Program-made: the position numbers and the translations under genes
The notes under the pieces: generated by a model
Told to the model about the DNA's origin: nothing
Databases searched by the model: none
What the model saw: only the letters and a program-made list of their open reading frames with translations
Origin: Ignavibacteriota bacterium
GTDB taxonomy: Bacteria > Bacteroidota > Ignavibacteria > UBA10030
Length of the DNA stretch: 64,000 bases
NCBI GenBank assembly: GCA_963769605.1
Contig: CAVYML010000003.1
Location: 158,305-222,304, forward strand
Direction of reading: 5' to 3'
Shown here: positions 626 through 25,749 of the stretch, piece by piece
Position numbering within the stretch: the stretch's first letter is position 1
Layout: each line of letters begins with the position of its first letter

Positions 626-892
626 ATGGAAAATAAAAATTTCGAATGCATTCATGCCTGCCGTACCACATGCAGTATGCTGGATGAAGCGATGCGGGAT
701 GAGACTGCGATGATTAGATTCTATGAACGGATGATGAATGAATGCACGTATCCAGATGTTCATGCATTTATTCGTGAAATCCTAGAAGAACGCAGCAGTG
801 CTATACTTCGCATTGTACAAAAGCTCAATGAATTAAAAGTTCGCGGACAAACAGTAGAGGATATTCGTTCGAGTTTTGACCCCGCTCCTTAA
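626..892 (+). CDS. hypothetical small cytoplasmic protein
   Basis: 88 aa ORF with good coding appearance and no recognisable domain. It is Cys-rich (CIHACRTTC). Confidence 0.35.
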   Translation: MENKNFECIHACRTTCSMLDEAMRDETAMIRFYERMMNECTYPDVHAFIREILEERSSAILRIVQKLNELKVRGQTVEDIRSSFDPAP

Positions 893-4091: not shown

Positions 4092-6311
4092 ATGAAAAAT
4101 CAAATTCTAACAGTTTTTTTTATAATCGTGTCAGCAGCATCGCATGCAGCAATTGGGCAGACAATAGACGATTGCTTGATGTGCCATGCGGATACATCGC
4201 TGACCATGGATCGTAATGGAAAAAATGTATCCATTTATGCGGATCGGTCCGTTTTACATCGATCTGTGCATGCGAAATTTGTATGCGTTGCCTGTCATAC
4301 CGGCTTCGATCCCCAGAATGTTCCGCATAAAGAAAAGATCACTCCTGTGAATTGTCTGCAATGTCACAGCGATGCTCCGGCAAAACATCCGTTTCATGCC
4401 TCAGAGATGAAAAGTGCGGCGAATCAGTCTTCGCTCCTTGTTCAGTGCAAACAATGCCACGGAACGCATGCTGTTGCGGCAATAAAAAATACGAATGCAA
4501 GTCTTCAAAGCAGGAATATTATCGAAACATGCGGAAAATGTCACGCAGCAGAAAAAGAGCGTTACTCAACTTCCGTTCATGGAAAAGCAGCGGTCGGGGG
4601 AGTCGTTGCTGCTCCCGATTGTGTCTCTTGCCATCAAAATAAAATTACAGGTTTGGCAGGAAGCAGGGATTCGGTCGCAATAAAAATTGCTCAGGAAAAA
4701 ACGTGTTTGTCCTGCCACCTTGATAATCCCGATGTACGCTCGCATATCGGTCTGTCGGCAGTATTTATCGCTGCATACGAAAAAAGCGTCCACGGTTCAG
4801 CTTTATTGAAAGGAAACGCATCTGCCGCCAATTGCGTCGATTGTCACGGCAGCCATTCGATTCAGCGAAGCGATGCTACGGCATCATCGATCAATCGGAA
4901 CAATATTCCCGCAACATGTGCGAAATGTCATGCCGGCATAAAACATGAATACGACGAAAGTATTCATGCAAAAGCCGTCGCAGGCGGGAATATGCAGGCG
5001 CCGGTTTGTACGAATTGTCACGGTGAACATAATATTCTTGCACCAGCAAATCCGGAGTCGCGTGTGGCCGCACAAAATGTTTCCCAGCAAGTCTGCTCCC
5101 CTTGTCATAGTTCGGTTCTTCTTTCAGAAAAATACGGTATTGCCAGCGATAGGTTTAAAACCTATTCTTCAAGCTTTCACGGCTTGGCTGTTCGCGCCGG
5201 TAATGTTGCCGTAGCGAATTGTGCGAGTTGTCATGGCGCCCATAACATAAAACCATCATCCGACTCCACATCATCGGTCAACAAGGCGAATCTTGTTAAG
5301 ACGTGCGGCAAATGTCATCCCGGAGCCAATGAGCGTTTTACGATCGGATCTATCCATGTTACGGCAGCACAAAAAGAAGAACCGCTGATCTATTGGTTTT
5401 CATTATTTTATGTGCTCATGATCGCATCTGTTATCGGCGGGATGTTTCTCCATAATCTTTTGGATTTTTACCGAAAATCGAAACGACAATTACTTATCCG
5501 CCGAGGATTTGAAACAGAAGAGCATTTCGGACACGCATTATATGTGCGAATGACACTCAATGAAAGGATTCAGCATGCAGCATTGATGGTCAGTTTCTTT
5601 ACGCTTGTTTTTACGGGATTTATGCTCCGATATCCCGACGCGTTCTGGGTTGTCTCCATTCGCAGCTTAAGCGAAAGTGTTTTCATGCTGCGCGGTTTGA
5701 TTCACCGTTGTGCAGCGGTTGTTATGGTCTCGGCTTCGCTGTATCATTGTTATTATGTTATCTTCACTAAACGCGGCAAGCAGCTCATCAGGGACCTTTT
5801 TCCCGTCTTGCAAGATTTTACCGATGCAGGAGATGTTTTGAAATATAACCTAGGCTTTTCAAAAACGAAGCCGAAACTCGGGCGGTTCAGCTATATAGAG
5901 AAAAGCGAATATTGGGCGCTCGTATGGGGTGTTGTAGTGATGGGGATAACAGGAATAATTTTATGGTTCGATAATACATTTATGGGATTGTTGACAAAAC
6001 TCGGCTGGGATATTGCCCGCATTATTCACTTTTATGAAGCATGGCTCGCTTTTCTTGCCATTCTTATATGGCACGTTTATTATGTCATTTTCAATCCCGA
6101 TGTTTATCCGATGAATCTTGCCTGGTTGAAAGGCACAATTACAGAAACGGAAATGGGAGAAGAACATTTGCGGGAATTGGAACAGTTGAAACGGCAGAAA
6201 CTTCTCGATGAAGCAACAGTTGTTCCTGTTGATGATGTCGAAAAGGAAAATCAAAAAGATATAAAACAGGTGCCCAAGAAATCACAGAAACACCCGAAGC
6301 TGAGATCATGA
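4092..6311 (+). CDS. fused multiheme cytochrome c (13 CXXCH) and integral-membrane cytochrome b (HydC/FdnI-like), CbcL-like quinol oxidoreductase
   Basis: A signal peptide (MKNQILTVFFIIVSAASHA) is followed by 13 CXXCH motifs in about 430 aa. The C-terminal ~300 aa form a polytopic membrane domain with conserved His residues on the helices, as in the Ni/Fe-hydrogenase/formate dehydrogenase b-type cytochrome subunit. Geobacter CbcL has the same architecture. Confidence 0.8.
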   Translation: MKNQILTVFFIIVSAASHAAIGQTIDDCLMCHADTSLTMDRNGKNVSIYADRSVLHRSVHAKFVCVACHTGFDPQNVPHKEKITPVNCLQCHSDAPAKHPFHASEMKSAANQSSLLVQCKQCHGTHAVAAIKNTNASLQSRNIIETCGKCHAAEKERYSTSVHGKAAVGGVVAAPDCVSCHQNKITGLAGSRDSVAIKIAQEKTCLSCHLDNPDVRSHIGLSAVFIAAYEKSVHGSALLKGNASAANCVDCHGSHSIQRSDATASSINRNNIPATCAKCHAGIKHEYDESIHAKAVAGGNMQAPVCTNCHGEHNILAPANPESRVAAQNVSQQVCSPCHSSVLLSEKYGIASDRFKTYSSSFHGLAVRAGNVAVANCASCHGAHNIKPSSDSTSSVNKANLVKTCGKCHPGANERFTIGSIHVTAAQKEEPLIYWFSLFYVLMIASVIGGMFLHNLLDFYRKSKRQLLIRRGFETEEHFGHALYVRMTLNERIQHAALMVSFFTLVFTGFMLRYPDAFWVVSIRSLSESVFMLRGLIHRCAAVVMVSASLYHCYYVIFTKRGKQLIRDLFPVLQDFTDAGDVLKYNLGFSKTKPKLGRFSYIEKSEYWALVWGVVVMGITGIILWFDNTFMGLLTKLGWDIARIIHFYEAWLAFLAILIWHVYYVIFNPDVYPMNLAWLKGTITETEMGEEHLRELEQLKRQKLLDEATVVPVDDVEKENQKDIKQVPKKSQKHPKLRS

Positions 6312-7801
6312 AAAGATTATTTCCTAAAACATTTTATAATATAACAAGCCTTTACGGCTTTGTTCTTGTGTCGATCAGTTTCGGATTATTCATATTCCTA
6401 TCGATTCTCGATTTCTTTGCCACGGATCAAAAACCGTATATGGGCATCATTACGTTCATAATTCTGCCGGCATTTTTGATAATCGGTTTGGCAATCGGTT
6501 TTTGGGGCGTATGGCGTGAGCATAAACGCAGGAAGCTCGGTTTGCCAATCCATGAACAATTGCCGCGGATCGATCTGAACGACCCAAAGCAGCAGCGGGT
6601 TGTTTTATACACAGGCATCGGAACACTTGTGTTTTTATTCCTTACTGTCTTCGGAAGCTATAAGGCGTATGAATATACGGACTCGGATGCGTTCTGCGGA
6701 ACCACGTGTCACAAGGTAATGAACCCGGAATATACGGCATATCAAAATTCGCCGCATGCCCGTGTCGACTGTGTTAAATGCCACATTGGCCCTGGCGCCG
6801 GATGGTATGTGCGTTCGAAACTCTCAGGCGCATATCAGGTGTATGCGACGTTATTCAACAAATATCCTAAACCCATACCTACGCCGATCGAAAATCTTCG
6901 TCCGGCTCAGGAAACATGCGAACAATGCCATTGGCCTAAACAGTTTTTCAGTGAAAAGCTAAAAAAAAATACATATTTTCTGTCGGATGAAAAGAATACC
7001 CGTTGGACGCTGGATCTTCTTCTTAAAATAGGAGGAGGAAATATTGAAGCAGGCCCGACATCTGGAATTCACTGGCATATGAATATTGCGAATGAATTGA
7101 CGTATATTGCAGACGATACGCAGCGCCAGGTTATTCCATGGATAAAATCAAAACGGGCAGACGGAAGTGTGGTGGTTTATCGCACCGCGGAGAATGCGAT
7201 TTCTGATTCGGCGGTTCAAACAATAAATAAGCGGCGCATGGATTGCATAGATTGCCATAACCGTCCTACTCACATTTACAATCCGCCGGCACAATCGGTG
7301 AACCATATTATGGCACTTGGCTGGATTGATCCGGCGCTTCCGGGCGTGAAAAGCATAGCAATAAAAGCATTGGAAACATCGTATGACACAAAGGAAGCGG
7401 GATGGAATGGTATTAAAAGAACTATCGAAGAATATTATCAAACAAATTATCCTCAGATTGCTGAAAGCCGGAAGGATACAATTGCGCGCGCCATTAAGGA
7501 AATTCAGCGTATCTTCAGCCATAATTATTTTCCCGAGATGCAGGTGAGCTGGAAAAAATTTCCCGACAATCTGGGCCACCTGTATTCACCAGGTTGTTTC
7601 CGGTGTCACGACGGCAAGCATGTGACGGATGACGGAAAAGTATTGTCCCGGGATTGCAATGTCTGCCACACCATTCTTGCACAGCAGTTTGAAAAAGAAG
7701 GATTACGATTGTCGCTCGACGGCATTGAATATCATCACCCTGTGGATATCGGCACTGCATGGAAAGAAATGAATTGCAGCGATTGCCACAACGCTCAATA
7801 G
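6308..7801 (+). CDS. heptaheme membrane-anchored cytochrome c, NapC/NirT family (ImcH-like)
   Basis: Three N-terminal transmembrane helices are followed by seven heme sites. The first site is CGTTCH (CX3CH); the others are CVKCH, CEQCH, CIDCH, CFRCH, CNVCH and CSDCH. Size and topology match ImcH-type inner-membrane quinol dehydrogenases. The gene is translationally coupled to the previous one through an ATGA overlap. Confidence 0.7.
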   Translation: MKRLFPKTFYNITSLYGFVLVSISFGLFIFLSILDFFATDQKPYMGIITFIILPAFLIIGLAIGFWGVWREHKRRKLGLPIHEQLPRIDLNDPKQQRVVLYTGIGTLVFLFLTVFGSYKAYEYTDSDAFCGTTCHKVMNPEYTAYQNSPHARVDCVKCHIGPGAGWYVRSKLSGAYQVYATLFNKYPKPIPTPIENLRPAQETCEQCHWPKQFFSEKLKKNTYFLSDEKNTRWTLDLLLKIGGGNIEAGPTSGIHWHMNIANELTYIADDTQRQVIPWIKSKRADGSVVVYRTAENAISDSAVQTINKRRMDCIDCHNRPTHIYNPPAQSVNHIMALGWIDPALPGVKSIAIKALETSYDTKEAGWNGIKRTIEEYYQTNYPQIAESRKDTIARAIKEIQRIFSHNYFPEMQVSWKKFPDNLGHLYSPGCFRCHDGKHVTDDGKVLSRDCNVCHTILAQQFEKEGLRLSLDGIEYHHPVDIGTAWKEMNCSDCHNAQ

Positions 7802-7822
7802 AATAAAGAAAAAAAGGGATCT

Positions 7823-8278
7823 ATGAATCAAACACCAGAAACTCCTGTCGATCAAAGTAAAAGAGACTTTTTACAGGTGGTCTTAGGCGGAGCGAGTGCG
7901 GCTTTTCTTGCTGCGATTTTATATCCGATCTTCGAATACCTCAAACCGCCGAAGCAGGCAGAAGTGGAAGTCTCGAGCGTGAAAGCCGGAAAGTTGAACG
8001 AGATTGAAAAAGACAGCGGGAAAATCATCAAGTTTGGCAGCAAGCCCGTTATTCTTATCCGTACCGCCAACGATGAGCTGCGGGCATTCTCGGCAACGTG
8101 CACGCATCTGGATTGCACCGTTCAGTACCGTAAAGATTACGGTACAATTTGGTGCGCATGCCATAATGGAAAGTATGATTTAAACGGCCGCAATATTTCC
8201 GGTCCGCCGCCGCGGCCGCTGGATGAATACAGGGTCGTTCTTCAAGGAGACGAAATTCTTATTTCGAAAAAAATATGA
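7823..8278 (+). CDS. Rieske [2Fe-2S] iron-sulfur protein of a cytochrome b/Rieske complex
   Basis: A KRDFL Tat-like motif followed by a transmembrane anchor is present. Rieske boxes CTHLDC and CACHNGKYD are both present. Confidence 0.85.
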
Positions 8279-9348
8279 AGACAATTCTTAAAAGAATGTA
8301 CGACTGGGTTGATGAACGTGTTGAACTCAATGGCCTGGTGGAATATATGGGAAAAAAATATGTTCCTGTGCACCGGCATTCAGTGTGGTACTATTTCGGC
8401 GGTGTCTCGCTCTTTCTGTTCATCATTCAGGTCGTAACAGGAATACTCCTGCTGCTCTATTATAAAAGCGGGGAGGAACTTGCAATCGAAAGCATTCATT
8501 TTATTATGTCGAAAGTGCAATTCGGCTGGCTGATCCGTTCGATCCACAGCTGGACTGCAAATCTGTTTATCCTCTCGGCAATGATTCATATGTTTAGCGT
8601 CTACTTTGAAAAAGCGTACCGCAAGCCGAGGGAAATAACATGGATAACGGGAATGCTTATGTTCTTTGTCCTGCTGGGATTCGGGTTCAGCGGATATTTA
8701 CTGCCATGGAATGAACTCGCATTCTTTGCAACAAAAGTCGGAACAGATATCGCAGGTGTGGTGCCTGTTATCGGCAAACCTTTAATGATCTTCCTGCGCG
8801 GCGGTGATGATGTTACAGGAGCAACTCTTTCCCGGTTTTTTGGGTTCCATGCGGCCGTCCTGCCGGGTATTTTTACGGTTTTTCTGGGAATTCACCTTCT
8901 TCTCGTTCAACGGCAGGGGATGAGCGAGCCGTTTCATTGGAAAAACGACACCGAGCAAAAAACGATGCCGTTTTTTCCGAACTTCCTGCTTCGTGATCTT
9001 TCATTATGGCTGCTGGTCTTGAATCTTCTTGCGATCCTGGCGGTTTTCTTCCCATGGGAATTAGGCAAAAAAGCCGATGCTTTTGCTCCTGCACCTGCAG
9101 GCATTAAGCCGGAATGGTATTTTCTTTATATGTTCCAGACGCTGAAATTTATACCCGGGAAATTATGGGTCCTTGATGGAGAGGTTCTAGGCATCGGATT
9201 ATTTGGCGCCGCAGGAGCGCTTTGGACGCTCGTACCGTTTTGGGACCGGAAAAGTCCCCGCGGTGAACAAAACCGATTCGTCAATTATCTCGGTCTCTTT
9301 GCAGTCATCTATATTATCATTCTCACAATTATAGGGTGGCTGGCATGA
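8275..9348 (+). CDS. cytochrome b (b6/subunit IV fused type)
   Basis: The N-terminal [24 protein letters not shown] motif is typical of cytochrome b. Heme-ligating His residues sit on helices and a PEW-like region is present. The 357 aa length suggests a fused b6 + subunit IV. Confidence 0.85.
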
Positions 9349-10808
9349 AAAAATTCTTTCTCTCATTTATTTCCGCCGCTCTACTTGTTCTCCCATTAAA
9401 AGCACAAAGACAAGATCAATGTTTTGAATGCCATAAAAATGCCGAAGATAATCCATCGAAACTTTTTAACCTTGACATTCATCACCAAAAAGGAATTACA
9501 TGCGCAGGATGCCATGGCGGTAATTCTAAAACGGACGACATGGAACTGGCGATGAGCAAGAAAGCCGGATTCATCGGCAGGCCAAAGGGCGACGACATCT
9601 CCCGCGTTTGCGCTGCATGCCACGGCGACCAAGAGAAGATGAAGTCTTTCGGTTCTTCCCTGCCGACGAATCAGTGGGAAAACCTGCAGTCGAGCGTTCA
9701 TGCCAAACCGGCCCTCAAAGGGAAAGAACATATCGTACAGTGCACGACGTGTCACAATGCACACGGAATTGTTTCTGTAAAAAATGCATGGTCTCCGGTC
9801 TATCCGCTCAACGTTGTAAAGACATGCACTCGATGCCATGCCGATGTTGCCTTTATGCGCTCCTATAATCCGTCACTGCCGGTGGATCAATTGGAAAAAT
9901 ACCGCACGAGCGTTCACGGTGTGCGCAACGGAAAAGGCGATCCGAAAACAGCGCAATGCGCAAGCTGCCATGGCAGTCACGATATACGAGCTGTGAAGGA
10001 CGTGAAATCGAATGTCTATTTTTCAAATTTGCCGGCAACATGCGCCAAGTGTCATTCCAACTCAGTGTACATGAAAGAATATAAAATTCCAGCCGATCAA
10101 TACGAAAAATATGCAAAGAGTGTCCACGGAATTGCAGTGCTGCAAAAACATGACCCCGGTGCGCCTGCCTGTAACAATTGCCACGGAAATCATGGTGCAA
10201 TGCCTCCGGGTATCGAATCGATCTCGCAAGTCTGCGGGACGTGCCATGCACTCAATGCAGAACTGTTTGCATCCAGCCCGCACAAGAAAGCGTTTGAAGA
10301 ACGAAAACTGCCTGAGTGTGAAACCTGCCACAGCAACCATGAAATTGTTGCCGCAACCGATAAACTCCTCGGCACAGATCCGGGCGCAGTGTGCAGCAGA
10401 TGTCACTCTTCGACGCAGAATTCCAACGGATATAATGCGGCAAAAGCTATGCGCGGATTGATCGACACTTTGGAAAGCCGAGAGGGACATGCCAAAACCT
10501 TGGTGAATGATGCAGAACAGAAAGGGATGGAGATAAGCGAAGCAAAATTTAAACTTAGGGATGTCCGGCAAGCTCGGCTGCAATCCAGAACTATGGTTCA
10601 TGCTTTCAATGAAGTGAAGTTCAAAGAAGTGGTCGACATCGGATTGAAAACGGCCGATATGGTCGTATCTGAATCTCAATCTTCAATCGATGAATATTAT
10701 TTTAGAAGAATCGGATTAGCTATTGCAACAATTATCATTACAATTTTAGCCGTATCGCTGTATGCTTTCGTGCGCCGACTTGAGCGGAGGGAAAACCCAA
10801 TAAAATAA
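9345..10808 (+). CDS. undecaheme c-type cytochrome with C-terminal membrane anchor (candidate c subunit of the Rieske/cytochrome b complex)
   Basis: A signal peptide is followed by 11 CXXCH motifs and a C-terminal hydrophobic helix ([21 protein letters not shown]). The ATG overlaps the cytochrome b stop codon (ATGA). Confidence 0.8.
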
Positions 10809-11106
10809 AATTAGAAGTGTTGAATTTATATGCGATGCTAATATTTGGAATTTTTTCCCAAAATTGTGAAAAAATCAAATAAAGGGAAGATTTTAAATGG
10901 ATTGGAATTCAAATATCTTAAATTATCGGCGATTTTATATTAAAACAGAATATCGTGCCTGTTGTAAAAATTGATGTATAATTATTCTACATGTAAAAAA
11001 TTGGCAGGATTTTTGATGCATTTTCTAAATTAAGCTTCACTTATAAAAATACAGAGTATCACATTAAAGGCAAGGAATCTCTCATAAATATTATTAGGAG
11101 GGCCAT

Positions 11107-11622
11107 ATGCGACTTTTCAAATTTCTCGTTGTTGTTTTTGTAATATTCTCAGGGGCAATAAGCGCACAGCATAAATACGTCGGCGTAAAAATATGCAAGA
11201 TGTGCCATCAAACTGAAAAAATGGGAAAACAATTCGATGTTTGGCAAAAAAGTCCCCACGCGCAAGCATTCGATACTTTAAAATCGGCAGCGGCAGAAAA
11301 AATTGCTAAGGAAAAAGGATTAACAAAAGCTGCTTCTGAATCGCCGGAATGTCTCGAATGTCATGCGATTACAGCGGATCCAAAATTGATTGCGGACGGT
11401 GTGCAATGCGAATCGTGCCACGGTGCGGGATCGGATTACAAGAATATGGCAGTAATGAAAGATCATGCTAAAGCCGTCGCGGCAGGTTTGTCGGATTTCA
11501 AAGACAAAGCTGCTATGGAAAAAACATGCAAACAATGCCACAATGAAAAAAGCCCGACAAAAAAAGAATTTAATTTCGATGAGATGTGGGCAAAGATTAA
11601 GCATCCGATTCCCAAAGGTTAA
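11107..11622 (+). CDS. periplasmic tetraheme c-type cytochrome
   Basis: 171 aa with a signal peptide and four CXXCH motifs. A strong AGGAGG RBS lies before the ATG. Confidence 0.8.
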   Translation: MRLFKFLVVVFVIFSGAISAQHKYVGVKICKMCHQTEKMGKQFDVWQKSPHAQAFDTLKSAAAEKIAKEKGLTKAASESPECLECHAITADPKLIADGVQCESCHGAGSDYKNMAVMKDHAKAVAAGLSDFKDKAAMEKTCKQCHNEKSPTKKEFNFDEMWAKIKHPIPKG

Positions 11623-11732
11623 GACGGTTTTCGTTGTGTGTGAATGCCGGTATGTCCGTGCCGGCTTTTGGCGTCACGGTAAGTTATGAGTAAATGATTG
11701 GTGTGTGTCATCAATCGAAAGAAGAGAACGTT

Positions 11733-13049
11733 ATGAAAATCACAACGAGGCTCAATGCCAAATTTTTAGCGTTTGCAGCGGCTGCTGCTTGTTGCTTGTG
11801 CGGATCTGAGGCATTCGGTCAGATGTTCCAAATGCGTTTGGTATCATCTGCCTACGCCTGGCAGCAGCAAGATTCGGCCGGTCAATCGTCGCACCATCTT
11901 TTCGGATATCAAACCGCCCAGATTTCGATTTCGGGAGAGCAGCTTTCCTTTCATACCTATCTTCAGGGCTTTAACGATTTTGCAGGGCCGCTGCAGGATG
12001 AAGGCGAAATGCGTGCGTACAATTTTTATTTAAAATATGCCGGACTTTTTGACGCAGCAGATGTTTCGGTCGGACGCGTTCCGGTTTTTGCCGGTGTGGG
12101 TGTCGGGACGTTGGACGGCGGGATTGCATCGCTTCGCTTGTTCGATACGCAATTGAAATTGACGGGGTACGGAGGATTGCTTCCGCAGGAAGATGATAAA
12201 TTTGAGCTGATCGGAGATAAGCGGCACAATACTATGTTCGGCGGCCAGATCAGCGCAGCTCCTTTCGAGTGGGGCGCTTTCTCCGTCAGTTATATGCGCA
12301 AGAACGAATTGCCGGAATCATATTGGGCCGAACGGGCGCAAGATTCGACCTATGCAATTCAAAACGTAGAAATCACTTCGTCCCCGGCAGCGGAAGAATA
12401 TATCAGCGGAGATGCCAATATCGATTATGACTGGTTCTCAGCTTCTCTGCGCTACGATTATGATATTTTACAGGATCAGATGTCGCGCGAGCAGATTTTT
12501 ACGCGTTTCAGAATTTGCGCTCCTTTCTCGCTCACCGCGGAGTACATCCAGCGAGAACCGCTCCTCGAATATAATTCGATCTTCTGGGTCTTTGCATACA
12601 ACACGCTGATTGAATATGATGCGGGAGTCGAATATACGCTCGACAAGAACATTCAAGTCTACGGACGGTACGGATCCGTTTCATACGGGGACGGAGAAAC
12701 TTCGGATCGAGTGACAATCGGCGGCAATACTAAATACGTGTCTGCCAACATTGCCTGGAATACGGGTTATGGCGGGCAATTAGCTGCAGTTTCAGCTAAT
12801 GCCGGATACCCGCTTCTGAACAATATGCTGACACCTACACTCCTTCTGAGTTATGCACATTATCGCTTGGAGAGCACAGATGCACTGACCGATGCACTCA
12901 GCATCGGGGCGGGAGTCGTGTACCGGCCGATGCCGATGCTTTCTATCGATACGCAAGTGCAATGGCTGACGAATTCCATTTATAGCAACGATCTGCGCCT
13001 GTTTGTCCGGGCCAGCTATTTCTTCAGTCATCAACTAAACATTTTCTAA
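11733..13049 (+). CDS. outer-membrane beta-barrel protein (candidate porin of a porin-cytochrome conduit)
   Basis: The signal peptide is MKITTRLNAKFLAFAAAAACCLCGSEAFGQ. The body has alternating hydrophobic/polar beta-strand periodicity and is rich in G, Y and aromatic residues. The C-terminus ends in Phe (…QLNIF), an OMP beta-barrel signature. No heme motifs are present. Confidence 0.65.
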   Translation: MKITTRLNAKFLAFAAAAACCLCGSEAFGQMFQMRLVSSAYAWQQQDSAGQSSHHLFGYQTAQISISGEQLSFHTYLQGFNDFAGPLQDEGEMRAYNFYLKYAGLFDAADVSVGRVPVFAGVGVGTLDGGIASLRLFDTQLKLTGYGGLLPQEDDKFELIGDKRHNTMFGGQISAAPFEWGAFSVSYMRKNELPESYWAERAQDSTYAIQNVEITSSPAAEEYISGDANIDYDWFSASLRYDYDILQDQMSREQIFTRFRICAPFSLTAEYIQREPLLEYNSIFWVFAYNTLIEYDAGVEYTLDKNIQVYGRYGSVSYGDGETSDRVTIGGNTKYVSANIAWNTGYGGQLAAVSANAGYPLLNNMLTPTLLLSYAHYRLESTDALTDALSIGAGVVYRPMPMLSIDTQVQWLTNSIYSNDLRLFVRASYFFSHQLNIF

Positions 13050-13058
13050 AAGAGTGCC

Positions 13059-14294
13059 ATGATGACCAATACGTACTATACCACAAGGAAACTGAACAGA
13101 CGTTCTGTCGTGTTCGTTGGAGTATTGCTTCTTGCCGCTATCGGGACAGCAAGCACATCGGCATTCTCCGCCGGGGATGGACCTTCGGTTCAGAATAAAA
13201 TTAAATTTAATCATAAGAAGCATATCGATGAAGTGGGAGCGCAATGCATCGACTGTCACACGAATGCCTTGACAAGCACTGCAGCATCTGATAATCTTTT
13301 TGCTCAAATGTCGGCCTGCCGGCCTTGCCACGAAGATGCGCTCCAAACGAATTGTGCATTCTGCCACACAAGCACCGATTCAACGACGTATGCAATTTCG
13401 AATCCTGTACGCGAATTAACCTTTAATCATCAATTGCATGCGGATGGACAAAAAATCGACTGCCAAAAATGTCATACAAATTTAGACAACGACAAGGTTT
13501 CCATAACCGAAAATGTACCGGCAATGAAAACATGTTCTTCATGCCACGATGGTGTAAAGGTAAAAGACGATTGTGCGGTATGTCATACAAATCTTTCTGC
13601 GCTGCGTCCTGCGGGGCATAACCGTACGGATTTTATACGCGAGCATAAATTTGCGGCGCGTGTCAATACTGCGACCTGCGGCGCCTGCCATTCGCAGGAA
13701 ACATGCACAGACTGCCACAATGGATCCGATCTCGTTCAAGTTACGGTCCCGGGAAAAGATATGATTTCTGCTCATTCTCCGCGTATTTCTTCAAACGACC
13801 GCGGCCAAACTATGGTGATCGAGAAAGTGCATGATTTGAATTACCGGTTTACGCATGGCGTCGATGCTCATGCAAAAACTATAGAATGTAAGACATGTCA
13901 CAGTACCGAACAGTTCTGTACGCCGTGCCATCAGGCGGGAGGAAATGTTAATCAGGAAGTCTTTAAACCCGCATCACATTCCATTGCCGGCTTTACGACA
14001 ATCGGTGTCGGATCGGGAGGCGGAGAACATGCGCGGCTTGCGAAGCGCGATATCGAATCGTGTGCGGCTTGCCACAGCGCCGATGGAGCGGATCCGGTCT
14101 GTGTTACATGTCATATGGATCCGGACGGTATAAAAGGAACAAATCCTAAAACCCATGCAATCGGGTTTATGGCAAATCAACACGGACGCTGGCATTCCGA
14201 TCCGGGCGCAAATTGCTACGTGTGTCATACCGACCCGAATGCAAGGCCAATGGGAATTAAAGGGCAGCGGTTTTGCGGGTATTGCCATAATTGA
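13059..14294 (+). CDS. multiheme c-type cytochrome (14 CXXCH in 411 aa)
   Basis: A signal peptide and 14 canonical CXXCH motifs give roughly one heme per 29 aa. Confidence 0.85.
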   Translation: MMTNTYYTTRKLNRRSVVFVGVLLLAAIGTASTSAFSAGDGPSVQNKIKFNHKKHIDEVGAQCIDCHTNALTSTAASDNLFAQMSACRPCHEDALQTNCAFCHTSTDSTTYAISNPVRELTFNHQLHADGQKIDCQKCHTNLDNDKVSITENVPAMKTCSSCHDGVKVKDDCAVCHTNLSALRPAGHNRTDFIREHKFAARVNTATCGACHSQETCTDCHNGSDLVQVTVPGKDMISAHSPRISSNDRGQTMVIEKVHDLNYRFTHGVDAHAKTIECKTCHSTEQFCTPCHQAGGNVNQEVFKPASHSIAGFTTIGVGSGGGEHARLAKRDIESCAACHSADGADPVCVTCHMDPDGIKGTNPKTHAIGFMANQHGRWHSDPGANCYVCHTDPNARPMGIKGQRFCGYCHN

Positions 14295-14309
14295 GAGGAT
14301 GGAACGAGT

Positions 14310-15176
14310 ATGAGAACAAAATATTTTTATTCGATTTTTATACCGACGATCTTGTCACTCTCATGCAGCGATTTGAAGAAGGATTTGCCGACCGCAACTC
14401 CGAGCGGTATTACAGTTCATGAACAAGGATGGACGGACACGTCGTCCGCCAATTTCCACGGAAAATATATCGCAGGTAATAATTACGATATGCGCGGCTG
14501 CCAGCAATGTCACGGCCTTCAATATGACGGCGGCATCTCAGGTGTTTCCTGTATGACCTGCCATACAAATCCGGATGGTCCTGAAAACTGCGCAACCTGT
14601 CACGGCGTGCCGCCGCCGCCCGATCGTTATGGTAATACTTCCAATGGAGCAATCGGAGTCGGCGCACATGTCATTCATTTCACGGGCAACGGCAATTACA
14701 CGACGCACAGCATGACGTGCTCAATGTGTCATTATATGCCGACAAGCATCTATGATCCCAACCATATAAATGCGACGGGACGCGCTTATGTGGTTTTCAA
14801 TGATCCGTTGGCAACGGTGAAAAGCAACGGAGTCACACCGGCGCCGGCCTATAATCTGAATGCCGTCACATGTGCAAATACATTTTGCCATGGAGCATGG
14901 CAGCTGTCTAAAGCGGTAGCGCCGGACACGACTGTGTATACGGCTGCCGTAATGAGCGGCACGTATGATGCACCGGTATGGACAGGAGGCTCAACGCAAA
15001 CAACTTGCGGCACAAATTGCCACACTAATCCGCCGGCGGGACATAAGGCTTCAGCCTTAACAAACTGTTATACCTGTCATGGCGATGTCATAGATGCAAC
15101 GGGAAAAATAAAGAATAAGACGAAACATATGAACGGAATGATCGATCTTGTGAGCGGAGCAGCGCCATTTCGATAG
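14310..15176 (+). CDS. lipoprotein multiheme c-type cytochrome (7 hemes, paired-CXXCH type with atypical CX3CH and CX4CH sites)
   Basis: A signal peptide ending in LSLSC suggests a lipobox. Five sites are canonical CXXCH (CQQCH, CMTCH, CATCH, CSMCH, CYTCH). Two are atypical, CANTFCH (CX4CH) and CGTNCH (CX3CH). Confidence 0.75.
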   Translation: MRTKYFYSIFIPTILSLSCSDLKKDLPTATPSGITVHEQGWTDTSSANFHGKYIAGNNYDMRGCQQCHGLQYDGGISGVSCMTCHTNPDGPENCATCHGVPPPPDRYGNTSNGAIGVGAHVIHFTGNGNYTTHSMTCSMCHYMPTSIYDPNHINATGRAYVVFNDPLATVKSNGVTPAPAYNLNAVTCANTFCHGAWQLSKAVAPDTTVYTAAVMSGTYDAPVWTGGSTQTTCGTNCHTNPPAGHKASALTNCYTCHGDVIDATGKIKNKTKHMNGMIDLVSGAAPFR

Positions 15177-15234
15177 ACAATGAAAATAATTTAAATCCAA
15201 TTATATCCTAAATAATAATAGATGAGGTAAGTCT

Positions 15235-16515
15235 ATGCTGGAAAGAAAAAAAATTACTTTTTTGCTTTGTATTATCACTCTTGCAGTGATTACAGGGTTA
15301 TGGGGAGGCTGCCGCGGTCCAATGGGCCCAACCGGTCCGAGCGGACAAAATGCAAATGCATCGGATCTTGAAGGTTTTGCCCCCGGTATTATATGTGCAA
15401 ACTGTCATAACCAGGATTTTAATCCTACATATGATATTCTTGCAAAAGTCATTGAATACGATGCTTCCATTCATTTTGCGGGAGGCGAAGATATTCAAAA
15501 TACAACTACATGCGCAGGCTGCCATACCAATGAAGGTTTTGTGGATCGCTATAATCATGGTTTTGCCAACGAGTCGTTTAATTTACACGCCCCATCCGGC
15601 CCCTTGGCAAGCCAAGCCTATCCGCAGGCTTCTCCTCCGGGATGCTTTACATGCCACATGCCGCATTCACGAGGCAATTTCACGGTTCGTGATTCCGGTA
15701 AAGTAAACATTTACACGCTTCTTGCCAACCAGTCGACGAAGGTTTGGAACAGCACTTCTGCTTCAAACTTATGCGTCAAGTGTCACCAACCTCGTATGAC
15801 ATCGACCCCCTTTACATCGACCCCGTATTCCTGGCAGCCGGATCCTTCACAAACAAGTGCAACCGACACCGCACGGATTTATACATCAAGATGGAATAAT
15901 CACGTCTCCGGCGAAATGACACAGACGCTGCTTGGTTTTGGCGGTTTCGAGTTTACCGGATATTCAGGTTATACAAATTCACAACATTCGACCTATATGA
16001 ATGGCAATCCTATTGGCTGCGAACAGTGTCACATGGCCACAGTCAACAGCGTCGATCTGGACGGCGGACATACGTTTACAGTAAAAGATACAAGCGCCTA
16101 TTCAATGTCTCCCTCGTATAACGTCAACGGATGCAATGTAAGCGGCTGTCATTCAGGCCTTGCTGCCACCGCAGCGGATGCCCATTGGAGCAAGCGCACG
16201 GTAATTATCACAGAGCTAAATCAGCTTGGAAAACTGATGATGGATACGAACATCACAAGGAAGTGGATGCCTGCCGGTAAAGCTGCTCCATGGGCTTCAT
16301 ACACAGTGACCGGCATCGATACTGTTTGGTCGCAGGTAAGCAAGGTTTACGGCAGCTCGATAGGCGCATCTAATCCTCTCGTTATCGTTCCGGCAGCAAA
16401 AGCGGGTGCACTATGGAATCTTCAACAAATCTATAACGATAAGAGCCACGGCATACACAATTACGAATATTTTAAGGCCTTGTTGGATAATTCAATCGCT
16501 GAGCTTAATAAGTAA
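15235..16515 (+). CDS. multiheme c-type cytochrome, probable lipoprotein (6 hemes including one CX4CH)
   Basis: A signal peptide with a possible lipobox (LWGGC) is followed by a Gly-Pro-rich linker (GPMGPTGPSGQ). Five heme sites are canonical (CANCH, CAGCH, CFTCH, CVKCH, CEQCH). One is atypical, CNVSGCH (CX4CH). Confidence 0.75.
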   Translation: MLERKKITFLLCIITLAVITGLWGGCRGPMGPTGPSGQNANASDLEGFAPGIICANCHNQDFNPTYDILAKVIEYDASIHFAGGEDIQNTTTCAGCHTNEGFVDRYNHGFANESFNLHAPSGPLASQAYPQASPPGCFTCHMPHSRGNFTVRDSGKVNIYTLLANQSTKVWNSTSASNLCVKCHQPRMTSTPFTSTPYSWQPDPSQTSATDTARIYTSRWNNHVSGEMTQTLLGFGGFEFTGYSGYTNSQHSTYMNGNPIGCEQCHMATVNSVDLDGGHTFTVKDTSAYSMSPSYNVNGCNVSGCHSGLAATAADAHWSKRTVIITELNQLGKLMMDTNITRKWMPAGKAAPWASYTVTGIDTVWSQVSKVYGSSIGASNPLVIVPAAKAGALWNLQQIYNDKSHGIHNYEYFKALLDNSIAELNK

Positions 16516-16557
16516 AAAAAATTAAAACGTACCTAAGCCTTTTAGATGCTTTCTCTT

Positions 16558-16596
16558 CGTGTGCGGAAGGCCCATCTTCCGCACACGTGTTTTATC
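16558..16596 (+). terminator. rho-independent terminator ending the cytochrome operon
   Basis: A 12 bp perfect stem (cgtgtgcggaag / cttccgcacacg) with a 6 nt loop is followed by tgttttat, 43 bp after the stop codon at 16515. Confidence 0.7.
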
Positions 16597-16684
16597 AAAT
16601 ACGCTTCATCTCTTTGAAACCTTCGGAAAATTCCCGATGTTCTATATCAAAGATCATTTATTCATGTCATAAAAGGAAGATAGC

Positions 16685-18934
16685 ATGATTGGCTCAATTG
16701 TTGTCTGGATCGCATTTGTATCGGCAGTTGCTTCGGGATGTCTCTATTATGTTTCAATAAAAAACAACAGTCTTCGCTTCATGGCGCAGAGCGCATATTT
16801 TACGGCAGCAATAGGTACATTATTAGCATCGGCTTTGCTGATGCTGTTCATTATTCAGCATCGATTCGAGTTCAACTATATAACGAATTACAGTTCGCGA
16901 GACCTTCCTTTTTCGCTGCTTATCACGACATTTTGGGCCGGGCAGGAAGGCAGTTTTATGTTATGGGCATTGTTTGCATCGCTCATCGGTTTGGTCCTTC
17001 AGCGGTACAGCATCCGGAAAAATATCGAAGCGGAGGTGATGACAACATACAGCATAGTTCTCGGTTTTCTTCTTCTGCTTATTTCGATCAAATCTCCCTT
17101 TGAATATATCTGGCAGGCTCAGGCAGGTGTAGAAAAAGGATTTGTGCCGCCGGATGGTCACGGCCTGAACCCGCTGCTTCAAAATTTTTGGATGATTATT
17201 CATCCTCCTATATTGTTTCTCGGATTTTCTTCTCTGGCTGTTCCGTTTGTGCTCGCCGTTGCCGCTTTAGGACAAAGAAATTATAAGAATTGGATGAACT
17301 CGGCTGTTCCGTGGGTGCTTTTCAGCGCTCTTGCCCTTGGTGCCGGGCTGATGCTCGGCGGATATTGGGCTTATGGTGTTCTTGGCTGGGGCGGCTGGTG
17401 GGGCTGGGATCCGGTGGAAAATTCTTCTCTCGTTCCATGGATAGTCACAGTCATACTCGTTCATACGATGCTTATTCAAATAATTACGGGAAAATTGGTA
17501 CGCACAAATTTTGTTCTGGCCATTCTGGCATATCTTCTTGTCGTTTACAGCACATTCCTTACGCGGAGCGGAATTCTTGCCAATTCTTCAGTGCATTCAT
17601 TTGTGGATCCCGGCTCTTTTGCATACGGCCTGCTCGTTCTTTGGCTCGCCGTTGTCGTCGTTGGAGGATTCGGTATGCTCTGGCGTCGGCGGAATGAACT
17701 GCATGCAGACCAGCCGCCGATGGGATTATTTACGCGTGAGTCGATTCTCTCGTTCGCTCTTCTCGTTCTCGGAGCTTGTGCAGGCATCATTCTATTCGGT
17801 ACGAGCATGCCGCTCTTTTCAAAGTCCGCACTTGAGCCTGCCTTTTACGATAAAACTACATTACCCCTTGCAGTGCTCCTGACGATTCTCCTGGGAGGCA
17901 GTCTTATCATTCAATGGAATCTGGAAGACAGGCGCTCTCTTTTAAAAAATCTTTTGATACCACTTTGTATTGCAGCTGCCGGAACGGCTGTGTGTATCGC
18001 AATTGGGCTGCGCGATTTTGGTGCAGGGGCGCTTGTCTTTTCTTCTTTCTTTGCCCTTTGCATAACTCTGAAACACGGGTATCGCATTCTTCGTCAACAG
18101 CCGAAATTTATCGGCGGCTCACTTTCGCATATAGGACTTGCGATTTTACTCCTGGGAATCATAGGTTCAGGTCGATATGGCGTCAAACAATCGGTTTCAC
18201 TTTCACAAAACCAGCCGCTGAATGTCATGGGATATGCGTTGACATATTTGGGAGACAGCCTTTCTCAAGAAGGAAAGACGCTCTTGAATGTTCGTGCCGA
18301 AAAGAACGGTTCTTTTAGCATCTTAAGACCGGTAATGTATGAAAGTTCATTTAATAACAGTATGATGCGCAACCCGGATTATCTCAGCTCTTTCACGAAT
18401 AATCTTTATATCGAGCCGGTTTCTTTGGAACGGCCAGATGATGAAGGCACCCGGAGCAATATGATAGAACTCATAAAGGGTGTTCCATGGAACTTTGGCC
18501 CGATGACTGTAACATTTGTGCGTTTTCAATTAGAAGAGCAGAACATGGAAAACATGCGGCTGGGACATAGTGCTACAATCGGTGCTGTGCTGGAGGTTAA
18601 AATCGATTCAACCGTTGAGGAACTTGTTCCTTTGACGACGTTTAAAGCTCCTCCGGGTGAGCCTGAAATGAAAGCAGCCTATACTAAAAGCGGTCATCTC
18701 GGTTTCCAATTAGTTAAATTAAATGTTTCGGGTGCATCCGAAAAAACGAAAATAATCGTTCAACTGGTTGGCCCGATGATGGCAGGTACAAGCAGGGCTC
18801 AATCGGATATTCTGGTAGCAGAAGTCAGCATCAAACCGTTCATGGGCTTTATCTGGGCAGGCGCCTTCTTTATTTTGTGCGGGATTATTGCTGCTTTTAT
18901 CAGGCGTATGCAAAAGCCTCTTAAGCTTTCATAA
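16685..18934 (+). CDS. ccmF: cytochrome c-type biogenesis heme lyase, CcmF/NrfE/CycK family
   Basis: A WWD-domain signature GWGGWWGWDPVENSS is present. The N-terminal FWAGQEGSFMLW block and the DGHGLNPLLQNFWMIIHPPILFLGF block align with the E. coli CcmF motifs. About 15 transmembrane segments are predicted. Length is 749 aa. Confidence 0.85.
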   Translation: MIGSIVVWIAFVSAVASGCLYYVSIKNNSLRFMAQSAYFTAAIGTLLASALLMLFIIQHRFEFNYITNYSSRDLPFSLLITTFWAGQEGSFMLWALFASLIGLVLQRYSIRKNIEAEVMTTYSIVLGFLLLLISIKSPFEYIWQAQAGVEKGFVPPDGHGLNPLLQNFWMIIHPPILFLGFSSLAVPFVLAVAALGQRNYKNWMNSAVPWVLFSALALGAGLMLGGYWAYGVLGWGGWWGWDPVENSSLVPWIVTVILVHTMLIQIITGKLVRTNFVLAILAYLLVVYSTFLTRSGILANSSVHSFVDPGSFAYGLLVLWLAVVVVGGFGMLWRRRNELHADQPPMGLFTRESILSFALLVLGACAGIILFGTSMPLFSKSALEPAFYDKTTLPLAVLLTILLGGSLIIQWNLEDRRSLLKNLLIPLCIAAAGTAVCIAIGLRDFGAGALVFSSFFALCITLKHGYRILRQQPKFIGGSLSHIGLAILLLGIIGSGRYGVKQSVSLSQNQPLNVMGYALTYLGDSLSQEGKTLLNVRAEKNGSFSILRPVMYESSFNNSMMRNPDYLSSFTNNLYIEPVSLERPDDEGTRSNMIELIKGVPWNFGPMTVTFVRFQLEEQNMENMRLGHSATIGAVLEVKIDSTVEELVPLTTFKAPPGEPEMKAAYTKSGHLGFQLVKLNVSGASEKTKIIVQLVGPMMAGTSRAQSDILVAEVSIKPFMGFIWAGAFFILCGIIAAFIRRMQKPLKLS

Positions 18935-20286: not shown

Positions 20287-20318
20287 TCTCAGGACTCGGT
20301 ACCATTCAAGTATCGCAT

Positions 20319-22427: not shown

Positions 22428-22518
22428 AAGATATTCCTTTACATGATAGAGTAATCCGGAATTTTAAAAAGCACAGATCTTTATCATTGGGGAATATAAG
22501 AAGCGCGCAAGAAAAAAG

Positions 22519-22574
22519 ATGTCGTAAAATCACAAAGAGCGTGTCGTATTTTCAACAAACTCGTGTCGTATTTT
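22519..22574 (-). promoter_or_regulatory. three direct repeats of (G)TGTCGTAwwTT at exactly 22 bp spacing in the promoter region of the hybrid kinase gene
   Basis: atgtcgtaaaat (22519-22530), gtgtcgtatttt (22541-22552) and gtgtcgtatttt (22563-22574) lie 92-147 bp upstream of the start codon at 22427 on the - strand. The same motif recurs at 25691-25746. Confidence 0.45.
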
Positions 22575-22741
22575 TGGGGTTGAGGGGGTTATTTTTCACT
22601 TATTGGGAAGAAACGGCCAAATCCGGTCATTTTCGCACGAAACGGAATTTCGCATTGTTTAAAACATTGGGAGTATTTTTTCGATATGATGTTTTTGAAA
22701 AAACAAAAAAAGTTTAATTATGAAAAGGATTATTCCATTTA

Positions 22742-24860: not shown

Positions 24861-24869
24861 TTCTCATAA

Positions 24870-25746: not shown

Positions 25747-25749
25747 AAC

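Follow-up and report, generated by a model that had tools for sequence, protein, structure and literature searches.

Organization of the locus

A 64-kb stretch of DNA from an uncultured peatland member of Ignavibacteriota (in the following, the window) contains a cluster of genes for multiheme c-type cytochromes that probably encodes a trans-envelope electron conduit of the porin–cytochrome (Pcc) type with its own entry points in the inner membrane. The cluster comprises eleven consecutive open reading frames (ORFs) on the plus strand between positions 4092 and 18934, which encode, in this order, a CbcL-like fusion protein, an ImcH-like protein, a Rieske subunit, a cytochrome b, an 11-heme cytochrome (MHC11), a c554-like tetraheme cytochrome, a β-barrel, a 14-heme cytochrome (MHC14), two lipoprotein cytochromes with seven and six hemes (lipo7 and lipo6), and a CcmF-like heme lyase (Table 1). 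A first-pass annotation of the DNA had assigned it to the Fibrobacterota–Chlorobiota–Bacteroidota (FCB) group, which agrees with the affiliation of the genome, and had proposed a set of ten same-strand genes for all tiers of an extracellular electron transfer chain. All tiers are indeed present on one strand, but the genes, counted with ccmF, number eleven.

Table 1. Features of the electron-transfer locus and of the adjoining heme-biosynthesis region (positions are those of the window).
Feature	Position	Strand	Basis
CbcL/MtoC/MtrH-like fusion	4092–6311	+	Signal peptide, 13-heme periplasmic c domain (13 CXXCH), C-terminal HydC/FdnI-type diheme b domain
ImcH-like 7-heme NapC/NirT protein, 497 aa	6308–7801	+	Three transmembrane segments, 6 CXXCH + 1 CX3CH, PF03264
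Rieske [2Fe-2S] subunit, N-terminal transmembrane anchor	7823–8278	+	PF00355
Cytochrome b, fused b6-like + subunit-IV-like	8275–9348	+	PF00033, PF13631, PF00032
11-heme cytochrome (MHC11)	9345–10808	+	11 CXXCH, signal peptide, C-terminal transmembrane segment at 461–479
Tetraheme cytochrome, c554 family, secreted	11107–11622	+	4 CXXCH, PF13435
Outer-membrane β-barrel, ~24 strands (predicted)	11733–13049	+	Signal peptide, C-terminal ...QLNIF, AlphaFold2 model
14-heme cytochrome (MHC14), 411 aa, 29 aa per heme	13059–14294	+	14 CXXCH, signal-peptide-like N-terminus
Heptaheme lipoprotein cytochrome (lipo7)	14310–15176	+	5 CXXCH + CX4CH + CX3CH, lipobox
Hexaheme lipoprotein cytochrome (lipo6)	15235–16515	+	5 CXXCH + CX4CH, collagen-like GXY linker, NrfA/OcwA-type fold
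Intrinsic-terminator-like hairpin	16558–16587	+	13-bp stem followed by TGTTTTAT; between lipo6 and ccmF
CcmF/NrfE-family heme lyase, 749 aa	16685–18934	+	~14 transmembrane segments, PF01578, PF16327
Heme-biosynthesis operon (CcsA/HemX-like, hemA, hemC, hemD, hemE, hemH, hemY, 232-aa protein)	27640–36426	-	
232-aa secreted protein, last gene of the operon	27640–28338	-	No family
hemY	28335–29762	-	Part of the heme-biosynthesis operon
CcsA/HemX-like protein, 275 aa	35599–36426	-	Cytochrom_C_asm; directly upstream of hemA

By motif count, the seven multiheme cytochromes contain 13, 7, 11, 4, 14, 7, and 6 CXnCH sites in gene order, which exactly reproduces the total of 62 given in the annotation. 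CXXCH accounts for 58 of the 62, compared with approximately 0.1 expected by chance from six-frame composition; even at six-frame amino-acid frequencies, the chance rate is only about 0.03 CXXCH per 1000 amino acids. Scans of the seven proteins found neither CXXCK nor CXnCH motifs with longer spacing, and nearly all their cysteines lie inside heme motifs. Elsewhere in the window, CXXCH occurs in one other ORF-like stretch only, as a single motif.

The most likely starts of the first gene and of the gene for MHC11 are the ATG codons at 4092 and 9345 (rather than 9336), respectively. Overlaps of 4 nt connect the genes for the CbcL-like and ImcH-like proteins, the Rieske subunit and cytochrome b, and cytochrome b and MHC11 (the last through ATGA), and the spacing between the ImcH-like and Rieske genes is 21 nt. 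Because the five inner-membrane genes overlap or abut, they look like one unit, which suggests that they are translationally coupled. A 298-bp AT-rich gap lies between the genes for MHC11 and the c554-like protein in the window; the same gap measures at most 110 nt in 22 of 35 relatives. An Rfam search of the window returned no RNA family, and a scan for sigma-70 promoters yielded 35 sites, which is chance level (29.3 ± 6.3 expected); the sigma-70 consensus is unsuitable for promoters of the FCB type. The one site in a search for TAnnTTTG lies upstream of the first gene, at 3964, and is not relied on here. No genes for NrfA, molybdoenzymes, or sulfite reductases are among the annotated ORFs of the window.

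Inner-membrane modules

Profile searches against Pfam and NCBIfam, which the annotation had suggested as a check, returned domains that support the gene order, and the parts of the three candidate quinol-oxidizing modules it had named hold up in tests of domains, motifs, and transmembrane (TM) segments. The CbcL-like protein combines a multiheme c domain with a diheme b domain, which is the architecture described for CbcL, MtoC, and MtrH (PMC6295460). Residues 502–684 match PF01292 (Ni_hydr_CYTB; E = 4.8e-13; 49.7 bits against a cutoff of 30.1), the protein also matches the gamma subunit of formate dehydrogenase (TIGR01583; E = 2.6e-14), and its C-terminal part has at least four TM segments by hydropathy at a strict threshold. 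All 13 motifs, 13 periplasmic histidines outside the motifs, and seven histidines of the membrane domain are kept in about 20 orthologs; the latter (His469, 510, 553, 567, 661, 676, and 707) show no variation among 20 orthologs, as expected of b-heme ligands among conserved TM histidines. A sequence search of the PDB gave only generic multiheme or c7 domains for this protein.

ImcH has been defined by three N-terminal TM segments, a CX3CH motif beside the third, six CX2CH motifs, and a length of about 495–519 amino acids (PMC6295460). The ImcH-like protein shows this architecture, as judged from its sequence: its TM segments are predicted by hydropathy at 18–36, 47–65, and 98–116 (12–34, 44–66, and 98–115 in catalogued homologs), the CX3CH motif (CGTTCH) is located at 130, just past TM3, and CXXCH motifs follow at 155, 204, 313, 430, 450, and 490. 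The motif and TM positions are within a residue or two of those of Ignavibacteria homologs in supplement 3 of PMC6295460 (motifs, e.g., GBD86519.1). PF03264 matches residues 99–186 above the cutoff (E = 1.8e-15), the match to NrfH (TIGR03153; E = 4.4e-17) is below the cutoff, and all seven motifs are kept in 37 of 37 orthologs.

The third module consists of the Rieske subunit, cytochrome b, and presumably MHC11. The Rieske subunit matches PF00355 above the cutoff (E = 2.5e-13); matches to the PetC TM anchor, TIGR01416, and b6f PetC are all below it. Both Rieske boxes are intact (CTHLDC at 93 and CACH at 111), the disulfide cysteines included, and the sequence KRDFL ahead of the TM segment reads to us as a possible Tat-like signal. 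Cytochrome b (PF00033; E = 3.8e-48; 164 bits) has the ligand pairs His91/105 and His192/207 and the Qo motif PEWY at 279. Since its scores are below the curated cutoffs for both b6 (235.9 bits; cutoff 325) and ExtP (199.8 bits, E = 4.2e-59; cutoff 290) in NCBIfam, it appears to represent a distinct clade of the bc1/b6f superfamily that belongs to neither equivalog. A tyrosine occupies the position of the heme-ci cysteine of b6. MHC11 has no sequence relative in a PDB search; it keeps its 11 motifs in 39 orthologs and offers 10 conserved histidines and five methionines as candidate distal ligands. It is presumed to be the c-type subunit of the Rieske/cytochrome b complex, in the place of cytochrome c1 or f.

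Tetraheme cytochrome, barrel, and 14-heme cytochrome

The annotation had placed a tetraheme shuttle in the periplasm and a β-barrel in the outer membrane, and both assignments are borne out. The c554-like protein has a signal peptide that ends in AISAQ, matches PF13435 (E = 2.4e-14) and cytochrome c554 (PDB 1bvb; E = 4.6e-5), and keeps its four motifs in 64 orthologs. The barrel protein has a signal peptide and a C-terminal phenylalanine, and no Pfam or NCBIfam family matches it above threshold. Its AlphaFold2 model, built with 30 homologs, has 24 strands (pLDDT 78.7); the best Foldseek matches are the 24-strand usher pores FimD and PapC (TMq 0.57), and all matches are outer-membrane barrels. 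In size, the modeled barrel belongs with the usher pores and not with diffusion porins of 16–18 strands, and we predict that the protein is the porin-like component of a conduit. Among 183 homologs, every one whose source is named comes from a metagenome-assembled genome (MAG) of Bacteroidota or Ignavibacteria.

The gene for MHC14 begins 9 nt past the barrel gene, and the two are adjacent in all 40 close and all 17 distant loci (see “Conservation and modularity”). Each of the 28 cysteines of MHC14 is part of a heme motif, all 14 motifs are kept in 72–75 orthologs, and 12 histidines and two methionines are conserved as candidate distal ligands. The protein matches c7-type and nanowire triheme domains, and a PDB sequence search gave only generic multiheme or c7 domains. 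MHC14 is presumed to be the wire inserted in the barrel.

Lipoprotein cytochromes

Together with MHC14, lipo7 and lipo6 make up the three further multiheme cytochromes of the annotation (14, 7, and 6 sites), and the lipoboxes of the two that it had called lipoprotein-like are conserved. In lipo7, the lipobox (...S-C) is followed by SDLK, and C-S-D-L-K is near-invariant across about 70 orthologs; this region corresponds to residues 20–26 (window 14367–14385). In Bacteroidota, acidic residues after the lipoprotein cysteine are a surface-export signal. A CxxxxCH/CxxCH domain (TIGR01904) was detected above the cutoff (E = 3.3e-9). All seven sites are kept in 66–70 orthologs, with the site at 233 (CX3CH here) mostly CX2CH elsewhere, and the protein evolves fast (median identity 39%).

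Lipo6 is an accessory component. Directly past its lipobox cysteine, residues ~26–37 (15310–15345) form Gly-X-Y triplets (GPMGPTGPSGQ). Orthologs keep such triplets or have longer runs, and three homologs possess a Pfam collagen-repeat domain; the stretch may be an extended spacer that keeps the cytochrome off the membrane. Six conserved histidines outside the motifs are available for the six hemes. An assignment as NrfA-type nitrite reductase was rejected because of these histidines and the lack of CXXCK; the fold alone is common, and sequence identity to structures of the OcwA/NrfA type is only 15–19%. A single distant homolog has been named nitrite reductase by NCBI.

Judged by sequence, duplication and divergence within the system affect its outermost cytochromes. 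In the nearest relative (L004; PMML01000046, fen_1254), lipo6 occurs as two tandem copies with 80% and 77% identity to that of the window, and lipo7 occurs as two to four tandem paralogs in several other relatives (L045, L049, and L062).

Heme lyase and heme biosynthesis

The last gene of the cluster encodes a member of the CcmF family (PF01578, E = 1.3e-27; PF16327, E = 1.7e-18; both above the cutoff) that matches CcmF of Thermus thermophilus (6ZMQ; E = 6.9e-58) and has the WWD motif WGGWWGWDPVEN and His173, 260, 304, and 482 aligned with those of that protein. Its scores for the curated NrfE/CcmF models TIGR03145 (237.1 bits; cutoff 927) and TIGR00353 (229.4 bits; cutoff 569) mark it as a divergent member of the family. 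Neither ccmE, ccmH, nor nrfFG was identified in the window, and no ccm (System I) partner genes were found in the window or in the ±10-kb flanks of 82 related loci, where a probe patterned on E. coli CcmE likewise gave no credible match.

The hairpin upstream of ccmF has a counterpart with a T-tract at the same position in 29 of 52 related loci. Its sequence is conserved in the nearest clade. Because its stem varies there (GGAAGG/CTTCC, GGGAG/CTCCC, and GGGAA/TTCCC among L001, L004–L012, L015, and L030) and still remains complementary, it is probably a functional RNA structure, which points to a terminator or a processing/stability element. Since this hairpin precedes ccmF, the gene is probably transcribed separately or by read-through.

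The window also contains a complete heme-biosynthesis operon, and an insert of approximately 8.7 kb with a DDE transposase parts ccmF from the hem genes. The operon follows ccmF immediately in the related loci L001 and L002, so that the 62-heme locus, heme lyase, and heme synthesis form one neighborhood there. The insert (19213–27500) contains genes for a GT4 glycosyltransferase, two histidine kinases (one of them a PAS-containing hybrid), a LuxR-type response regulator, and a polytopic membrane protein; its transposase is located at 25967–27457, and the GC content drops to 0.38 at 24–28 kb. It is absent from the same position in L001 and L002; L004 and L005, which are the nearest relatives, carry the GT4 gene. 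Upstream of hemA, the 275-aa Cytochrom_C_asm protein was rejected as a System II lyase (CcsA-type score 121 against a cutoff of 188; no ResB-like neighbor); the next ORFs beyond it encode a GH5 cellulase and a 3-keto-disaccharide hydrolase. Its position resembles that of HemX in Bacillus, which is encoded directly upstream of hemA as well.

The annotation had called the lyase dedicated to the conduit. Its family and its constant position next to the cytochromes (40 of 40 close relatives) stand, but the epithet is in doubt: a terminator-like hairpin lies in between, and in relatives the hem operon abuts the gene. CcmF may be a general lyase located between its largest set of clients and the heme supply. 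Alternatively, by analogy with NrfE, a CcmF paralog dedicated to the atypical motif CXXCK, it may be a specialized paralog, with the CX3CH and CX4CH sites as plausible special clients.

Conservation and modularity

A scan of GTDB species genomes recovered 79 loci, 55 from genomes with a barrel identity of at least 43% (the close group) and 24 from genomes at 30–37% (the distant group). Organisms with related loci are widespread in groundwater and sediments as well as in fens and peat. MAGs from fens and peat are the nearest relatives; two of them, one of the Stordalen fen type (PMML01000046) and one Danish (CAVZWL010000013), reach a barrel identity of 92–93%. The closed 3.64-Mb MAG OY969585.1 (L001/L054) carries the same locus.

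In ortholog sets drawn from the 82 related loci (17–75 orthologs per protein), all 62 heme sites are kept in essentially all orthologs that cover them, and all of them are under purifying selection. The number of conserved histidines and methionines outside the motifs equals the number of hemes or is one short of it in six of the seven cytochromes, the c554-like protein being the exception. Because these counts match the hemes and CXXCK is lacking, the hemes of the locus resemble six-coordinate carriers of electrons more than centers of catalysis. Conservation declines in the order of predicted location from the inner membrane to the surface: median identity to relatives is 82% for cytochrome b, the best-conserved protein of the locus, 75% for the Rieske subunit, 67% for the ImcH-like protein and MHC11, 60% for the c554-like protein, 54% for MHC14, 52% for the barrel, and 37–39% for the lipoproteins.

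The comparison of synteny across Ignavibacteriota that the annotation had recommended shows the arrangement to be conserved in dozens of species represented by MAGs, with colinear order down to a barrel identity of about 44%. In the close group, MHC14 and ccmF are present in 40 of 40 loci and lipo6 in 18 of 40; the ImcH-like gene occurs in 29, cytochrome b and MHC11 in 28 each, and the CbcL-like gene in 22 of 35 loci, the last figure being an undercount, with the gene near the limit of the 10-kb flank. In the distant group, the quinol-oxidase genes are found in 3–5 of 15 loci and ccmF in 6 of 17. Several natural deletion variants (L010, L015, L028, L043, L049, L056, and L062) lack the Rieske subunit, cytochrome b, and MHC11; in these, the ImcH-like gene, with or without the CbcL-like gene, lies directly beside the c554 or barrel gene. 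In lineages in which the genes for alanine dehydrogenase and acetyl-CoA hydrolase have moved from the upstream to the downstream side, ccmF stays with the cytochromes. Because modules are gained and lost independently and distant relatives mostly keep a core of four genes, the locus is modular, and its full arrangement is a conserved feature of the lineage and no accident of one genome.

Relationship to known electron-transfer systems

The locus contains the elements by which Pcc clusters are defined (Shi et al. 2014), i.e., a porin-like barrel, an adjacent secreted multiheme cytochrome, and, by sequence, adjacent lipoprotein multiheme cytochromes. The closest counterpart in the same phylum is the pcc cluster of Ignavibacterium album (IALB_1840–1837), which encodes a periplasmic cytochrome, a porin, a 400-aa cytochrome with 14 hemes, and a cytochrome of the outer membrane whose motif is atypical; IALB_1838 has been called the largest periplasmic Pcc cytochrome known (PMC4245776). 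The order of these four genes is the same as that of genes 6–9 in the window, a likeness that is based on description and not on alignment: the c554-like gene has the position and type of IALB_1840, MHC14 fits IALB_1838, and lipo7 fits IALB_1837. The window differs by the CbcL-like, ImcH-like, Rieske, cytochrome b, and 11-heme genes upstream and, on the downstream side, by ccmF and another lipoprotein cytochrome. The locus is a fuller, modular version of the known ignavibacterial porin–cytochrome cluster.

According to its genome paper, I. album has only alternative complex III (ACIII) and lacks a cytochrome b–Rieske complex. In one related locus (L034; DYFT01000001), from a MAG labelled Ignavibacterium album, the cluster includes genes for a Rieske protein and cytochrome b; either the MAG is loosely labelled or these genes escaped notice in the type-strain paper. 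A search with a distant barrel (L068) returned 1051 relatives, none of them named as the I. album type strain.

The Pcc systems of Geobacter (OmaB–OmbB–OmcB and ExtABCD) follow the same logic, with a periplasmic multiheme cytochrome, a barrel, and one or more lipoprotein cytochromes. ExtABCD has two of the latter, as does the window, and ExtA has 12 hemes. The periplasmic partner in the window has 14 hemes, compared with eight in OmaB, and IALB_1839 and IALB_1838 are reported to be distantly related to the Geobacter proteins (PMC4245776). Ignavibacterial porins have been classified as OmbB-like with hidden Markov models (PMC7399161).

ImcH and CbcL are also known from the phylum, with three and two homologs, respectively, tabulated for Ignavibacteriae (PMC6295460) and an ImcH reported for Melioribacter roseus (PMC4251993). 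The CbcL-like protein of the window has 13 hemes, compared with nine in Geobacter and 19 in two entries from Ignavibacteria (PMC6295460). In Geobacter, ImcH serves acceptors of high and CbcL acceptors of low potential. The genes for the window's versions overlap each other and share a locus with the outer-membrane conduit, which sets them apart from ImcH (GSU3259) and CbcL (GSU0274) of Geobacter. There, imcH and cbcL (and the genes for CbcBA) are, as far as is known, encoded away from the conduit loci, and the pairing of oxidases with conduits is still under debate.

The annotation had contrasted the compact arrangement with Geobacter and Shewanella, in which the functions are scattered over several loci, and this overstated its uniqueness: Pcc clusters, ImcH, and CbcL have been published for the phylum, and the ext cluster of Geobacter, the one described cluster of this kind that was found, combines a porin-like protein, multiheme cytochromes, and a Rieske/cytochrome b module. 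That cluster (extHIJKLMNOPQS; GSU2940–2930), with the Rieske protein ExtO and the cytochromes b ExtP and ExtQ, affects selenite and tellurite reduction and not the reduction of Fe(III) citrate; ExtI resembles phosphate porins and is stated to be non-analogous to Pcc, and ExtOPQ is uncharacterized (PMC5877670). The locus in the window is without the rhodanese and the selenoprotein ExtKL, its cytochrome b is fused with subunit IV, and it has an 11-heme, C-terminally anchored c-type subunit. A precedent for several quinol oxidases beside an outer-membrane conduit is the mtr cluster of Rhodoferax, which contains two cymA genes and mtrH.

The likeness to MtrCAB and CymA of Shewanella is one of function only. 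Membership in MtrCAB was rejected on the scores for the NCBIfam models of DmsE/MtrA and OmcA/MtrC, TIGR03508 (best 57.8 bits; cutoff 192) and TIGR03507 (best 19.2 bits; cutoff 209), and on the barrel, whose model has 24 strands and does not have MtrB among its top 50 Foldseek matches; MtrB is a 26-stranded protein. Lipo6 differs from OcwA of Thermincola potens, the undecaheme S-layer cytochrome of Carboxydothermus ferrireducens, and NrfA in its lipid anchor, its collagen-like linker, its heme number of six, and the lack of CXXCK.

Anode biofilms, hot-spring sediments, and humic lakes are known sources of ignavibacterial Pcc clusters. No report was found of an ignavibacterial locus in which the genes for ImcH, CbcL, and a Rieske/cytochrome b module share colinear order with ccmF and a Pcc conduit, nor of a treatment of Ignavibacteria, extracellular electron transfer, and Rieske proteins together, and ccmF of Ignavibacteria is treated only in the M. 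roseus study; these negatives are weak evidence, as most subscription journals were outside the searched literature.

Proposed electron flow and alternative explanations

The reading that seems moderately probable is that of a trans-envelope conduit of the Pcc type with its own entry points in the inner membrane and an outward flow of electrons. Menaquinol would be oxidized at one of three alternative modules, i.e., the ImcH-like protein, the CbcL-like protein, or the Rieske/cytochrome b complex with MHC11, and the electrons would be passed to the soluble c554-like protein in the periplasm, from there to the 14-heme cytochrome threaded into the 24-strand barrel, and via one or two lipoprotein cytochromes to an acceptor outside the cell or at its surface. 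For organisms of fens and peat, Fe(III) and Mn(IV) minerals or humic substances are likely acceptors. If Geobacter is a guide, these three modules may serve acceptors of different redox potential; the Rieske/cytochrome b complex would offer coupling through a Q-cycle, which is pure inference, and the CcmF-type lyase would mature the c-type cytochromes. This reading is consistent with the predicted locations of the proteins, which form a spatial series from the inner membrane to the surface by their TM segments, signal peptides, and lipoboxes, and with the enrichment of Ignavibacteria with Pcc clusters on anodes as well as in sediments where Fe(III) is reduced. The existence of a conduit is better supported than the direction of flow; complex formation, direction, acceptor, and co-expression are inferred.

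Several points weigh against the proposed conduit. The organism and its close relatives are MAGs, known from sequence alone, and I. album is reported not to reduce solid Fe(III) or Mn(IV) oxides (PMC4245776). The homology of the barrel to OmbB and ExtB of Geobacter rests on the literature, the surface exposure of both lipoproteins is a step beyond prediction for the phylum Ignavibacteriota, and the fold of lipo6 is common to nitrite reductases and surface metal reductases. In addition, the AT-rich gap of 298 bp splits the locus before the c554 gene, the presence of one module in a genome is independent of that of the others, with Rieske and cytochrome b genes missing from some, and distant relatives mostly retain only the core of c554, barrel, 14-heme, and lipoprotein genes.

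The same components could carry electrons inward, from Fe(II), reduced humic substances, or a partner cell to the quinone pool (uphill) or an oxidase. No feature of the sequence tells the direction, homologs of CbcL, MtoC, and MtrH are found in Fe(II) oxidizers and reducers alike, and Ignavibacteriaceae MAGs from a humic bog also encode Cyc2. Rieske/cytochrome b complexes are typical of the chains of Fe(II) oxidizers, such as Acidithiobacillus ferrooxidans and neutrophilic species. Inward flow is nevertheless unlikely, as ImcH has so far been implicated only in the oxidation of quinols, the flanking genes are those of an organotroph (POR, alanine dehydrogenase, and acetyl-CoA hydrolase/transferase), and no CO2-fixation genes were identified in the window. 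Moreover, no Pcc cluster was present in any Fe(II) oxidizer known at the time of PMC4245776, and clusters with lipoprotein cytochromes of the extracellular type have been classed as reducer-like (PMC6137239). It is quite unlikely that the locus reduces a soluble or colloidal substrate, such as nitrite, hydroxylamine, selenite, tellurite, or sulfur species, at the surface or in the periplasm, in which case the barrel would serve as a substrate channel or an anchor and lipo6 would be an enzyme of the NrfA kind. The reported failure of I. album to reduce Fe(III) oxides, the activity of the Geobacter ext cluster on selenite and tellurite but not Fe(III) citrate, and the distant homolog named nitrite reductase would fit such a role, but CXXCK is lacking, the six histidines for six hemes in lipo6 leave no obvious catalytic heme with open coordination, and lipo6 is optional (18 of 40 loci), whereas the pair of barrel and 14-heme cytochrome is universal. 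A barrel of 24 strands that invariably accompanies a 14-heme protein marks a conduit for electrons through cytochromes and not a solute porin. A role of the cytochromes as partners of a periplasmic nitrite or sulfite reductase was rejected as the principal explanation, given the lack of CXXCK, the match between ligand and heme counts, and the finding that none of the annotated ORFs in the window encodes a catalytic subunit.

The locus might also be a juxtaposition of independent units, namely a quinol-oxidase operon, a pcc operon, and a general ccmF gene, that became neighbors through heme economy or descent. The gap before the c554 gene, the conserved terminator before ccmF, the proximity of ccmF to the hem operon in relatives, and the independent gain and loss of modules would be expected in this case, as would the aerobic up-regulation of a CcmF in M. 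roseus, which befits a housekeeping lyase. Such a juxtaposition is very unlikely in view of the colinear order across dozens of species-level genomes, the short distance (at most 110 nt) between MHC11 and c554 genes in 22 of 35 relatives, and the retention of ccmF beside the cytochromes when the alanine dehydrogenase and acetyl-CoA hydrolase genes change sides; in addition, no acceptor would be encoded near quinol oxidases that had neither a periplasmic nor an outer partner. There is a small chance that the proposed conduit takes a more elaborate form, in which the Rieske/cytochrome b complex with MHC11 is wired to the barrel directly or via the tetraheme protein and couples electron export to a proton-motive Q-cycle, the ImcH-like and CbcL-like proteins are used for acceptors of lower potential, and CcmF is a paralog specialized for this heme-dense set of proteins with its CX3CH and CX4CH sites.

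Other features of the window

Upstream of the locus, an 88-aa cysteine-containing ORF without a Pfam family (626–892, plus strand) lies between a POR gamma-like gene and the gene for alanine dehydrogenase. The rest of the window (46530–49706; 40852–41703; 50047–54225, minus strand; 55265–62242) encodes a type ISP restriction-modification enzyme, a fragment of an IS-like transposase, a 1392-aa hybrid two-component regulator with β-propeller/Y_Y_Y and AraC domains, and three proteins with C-terminal sorting domains of the type IX secretion system, one of them CotH-like, which fits a genome of the FCB group.

Implications

If the interpretation is correct, a single locus that combines ImcH, CbcL, and a Rieske/cytochrome b complex with a periplasmic shuttle and one conduit would provide a testable wiring diagram. 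ImcH is apparently electroneutral, and what CbcL contributes energetically has yet to be established in the literature; a Rieske/cytochrome b complex in an electron-export locus would raise the possibility that export is coupled to a Q-cycle. The fens, peat, groundwater, and sediments in which these organisms occur are environments where the redox cycling of iron and humic substances affects carbon turnover, and the locus would be a useful marker for those Ignavibacteriota that may respire extracellular acceptors.

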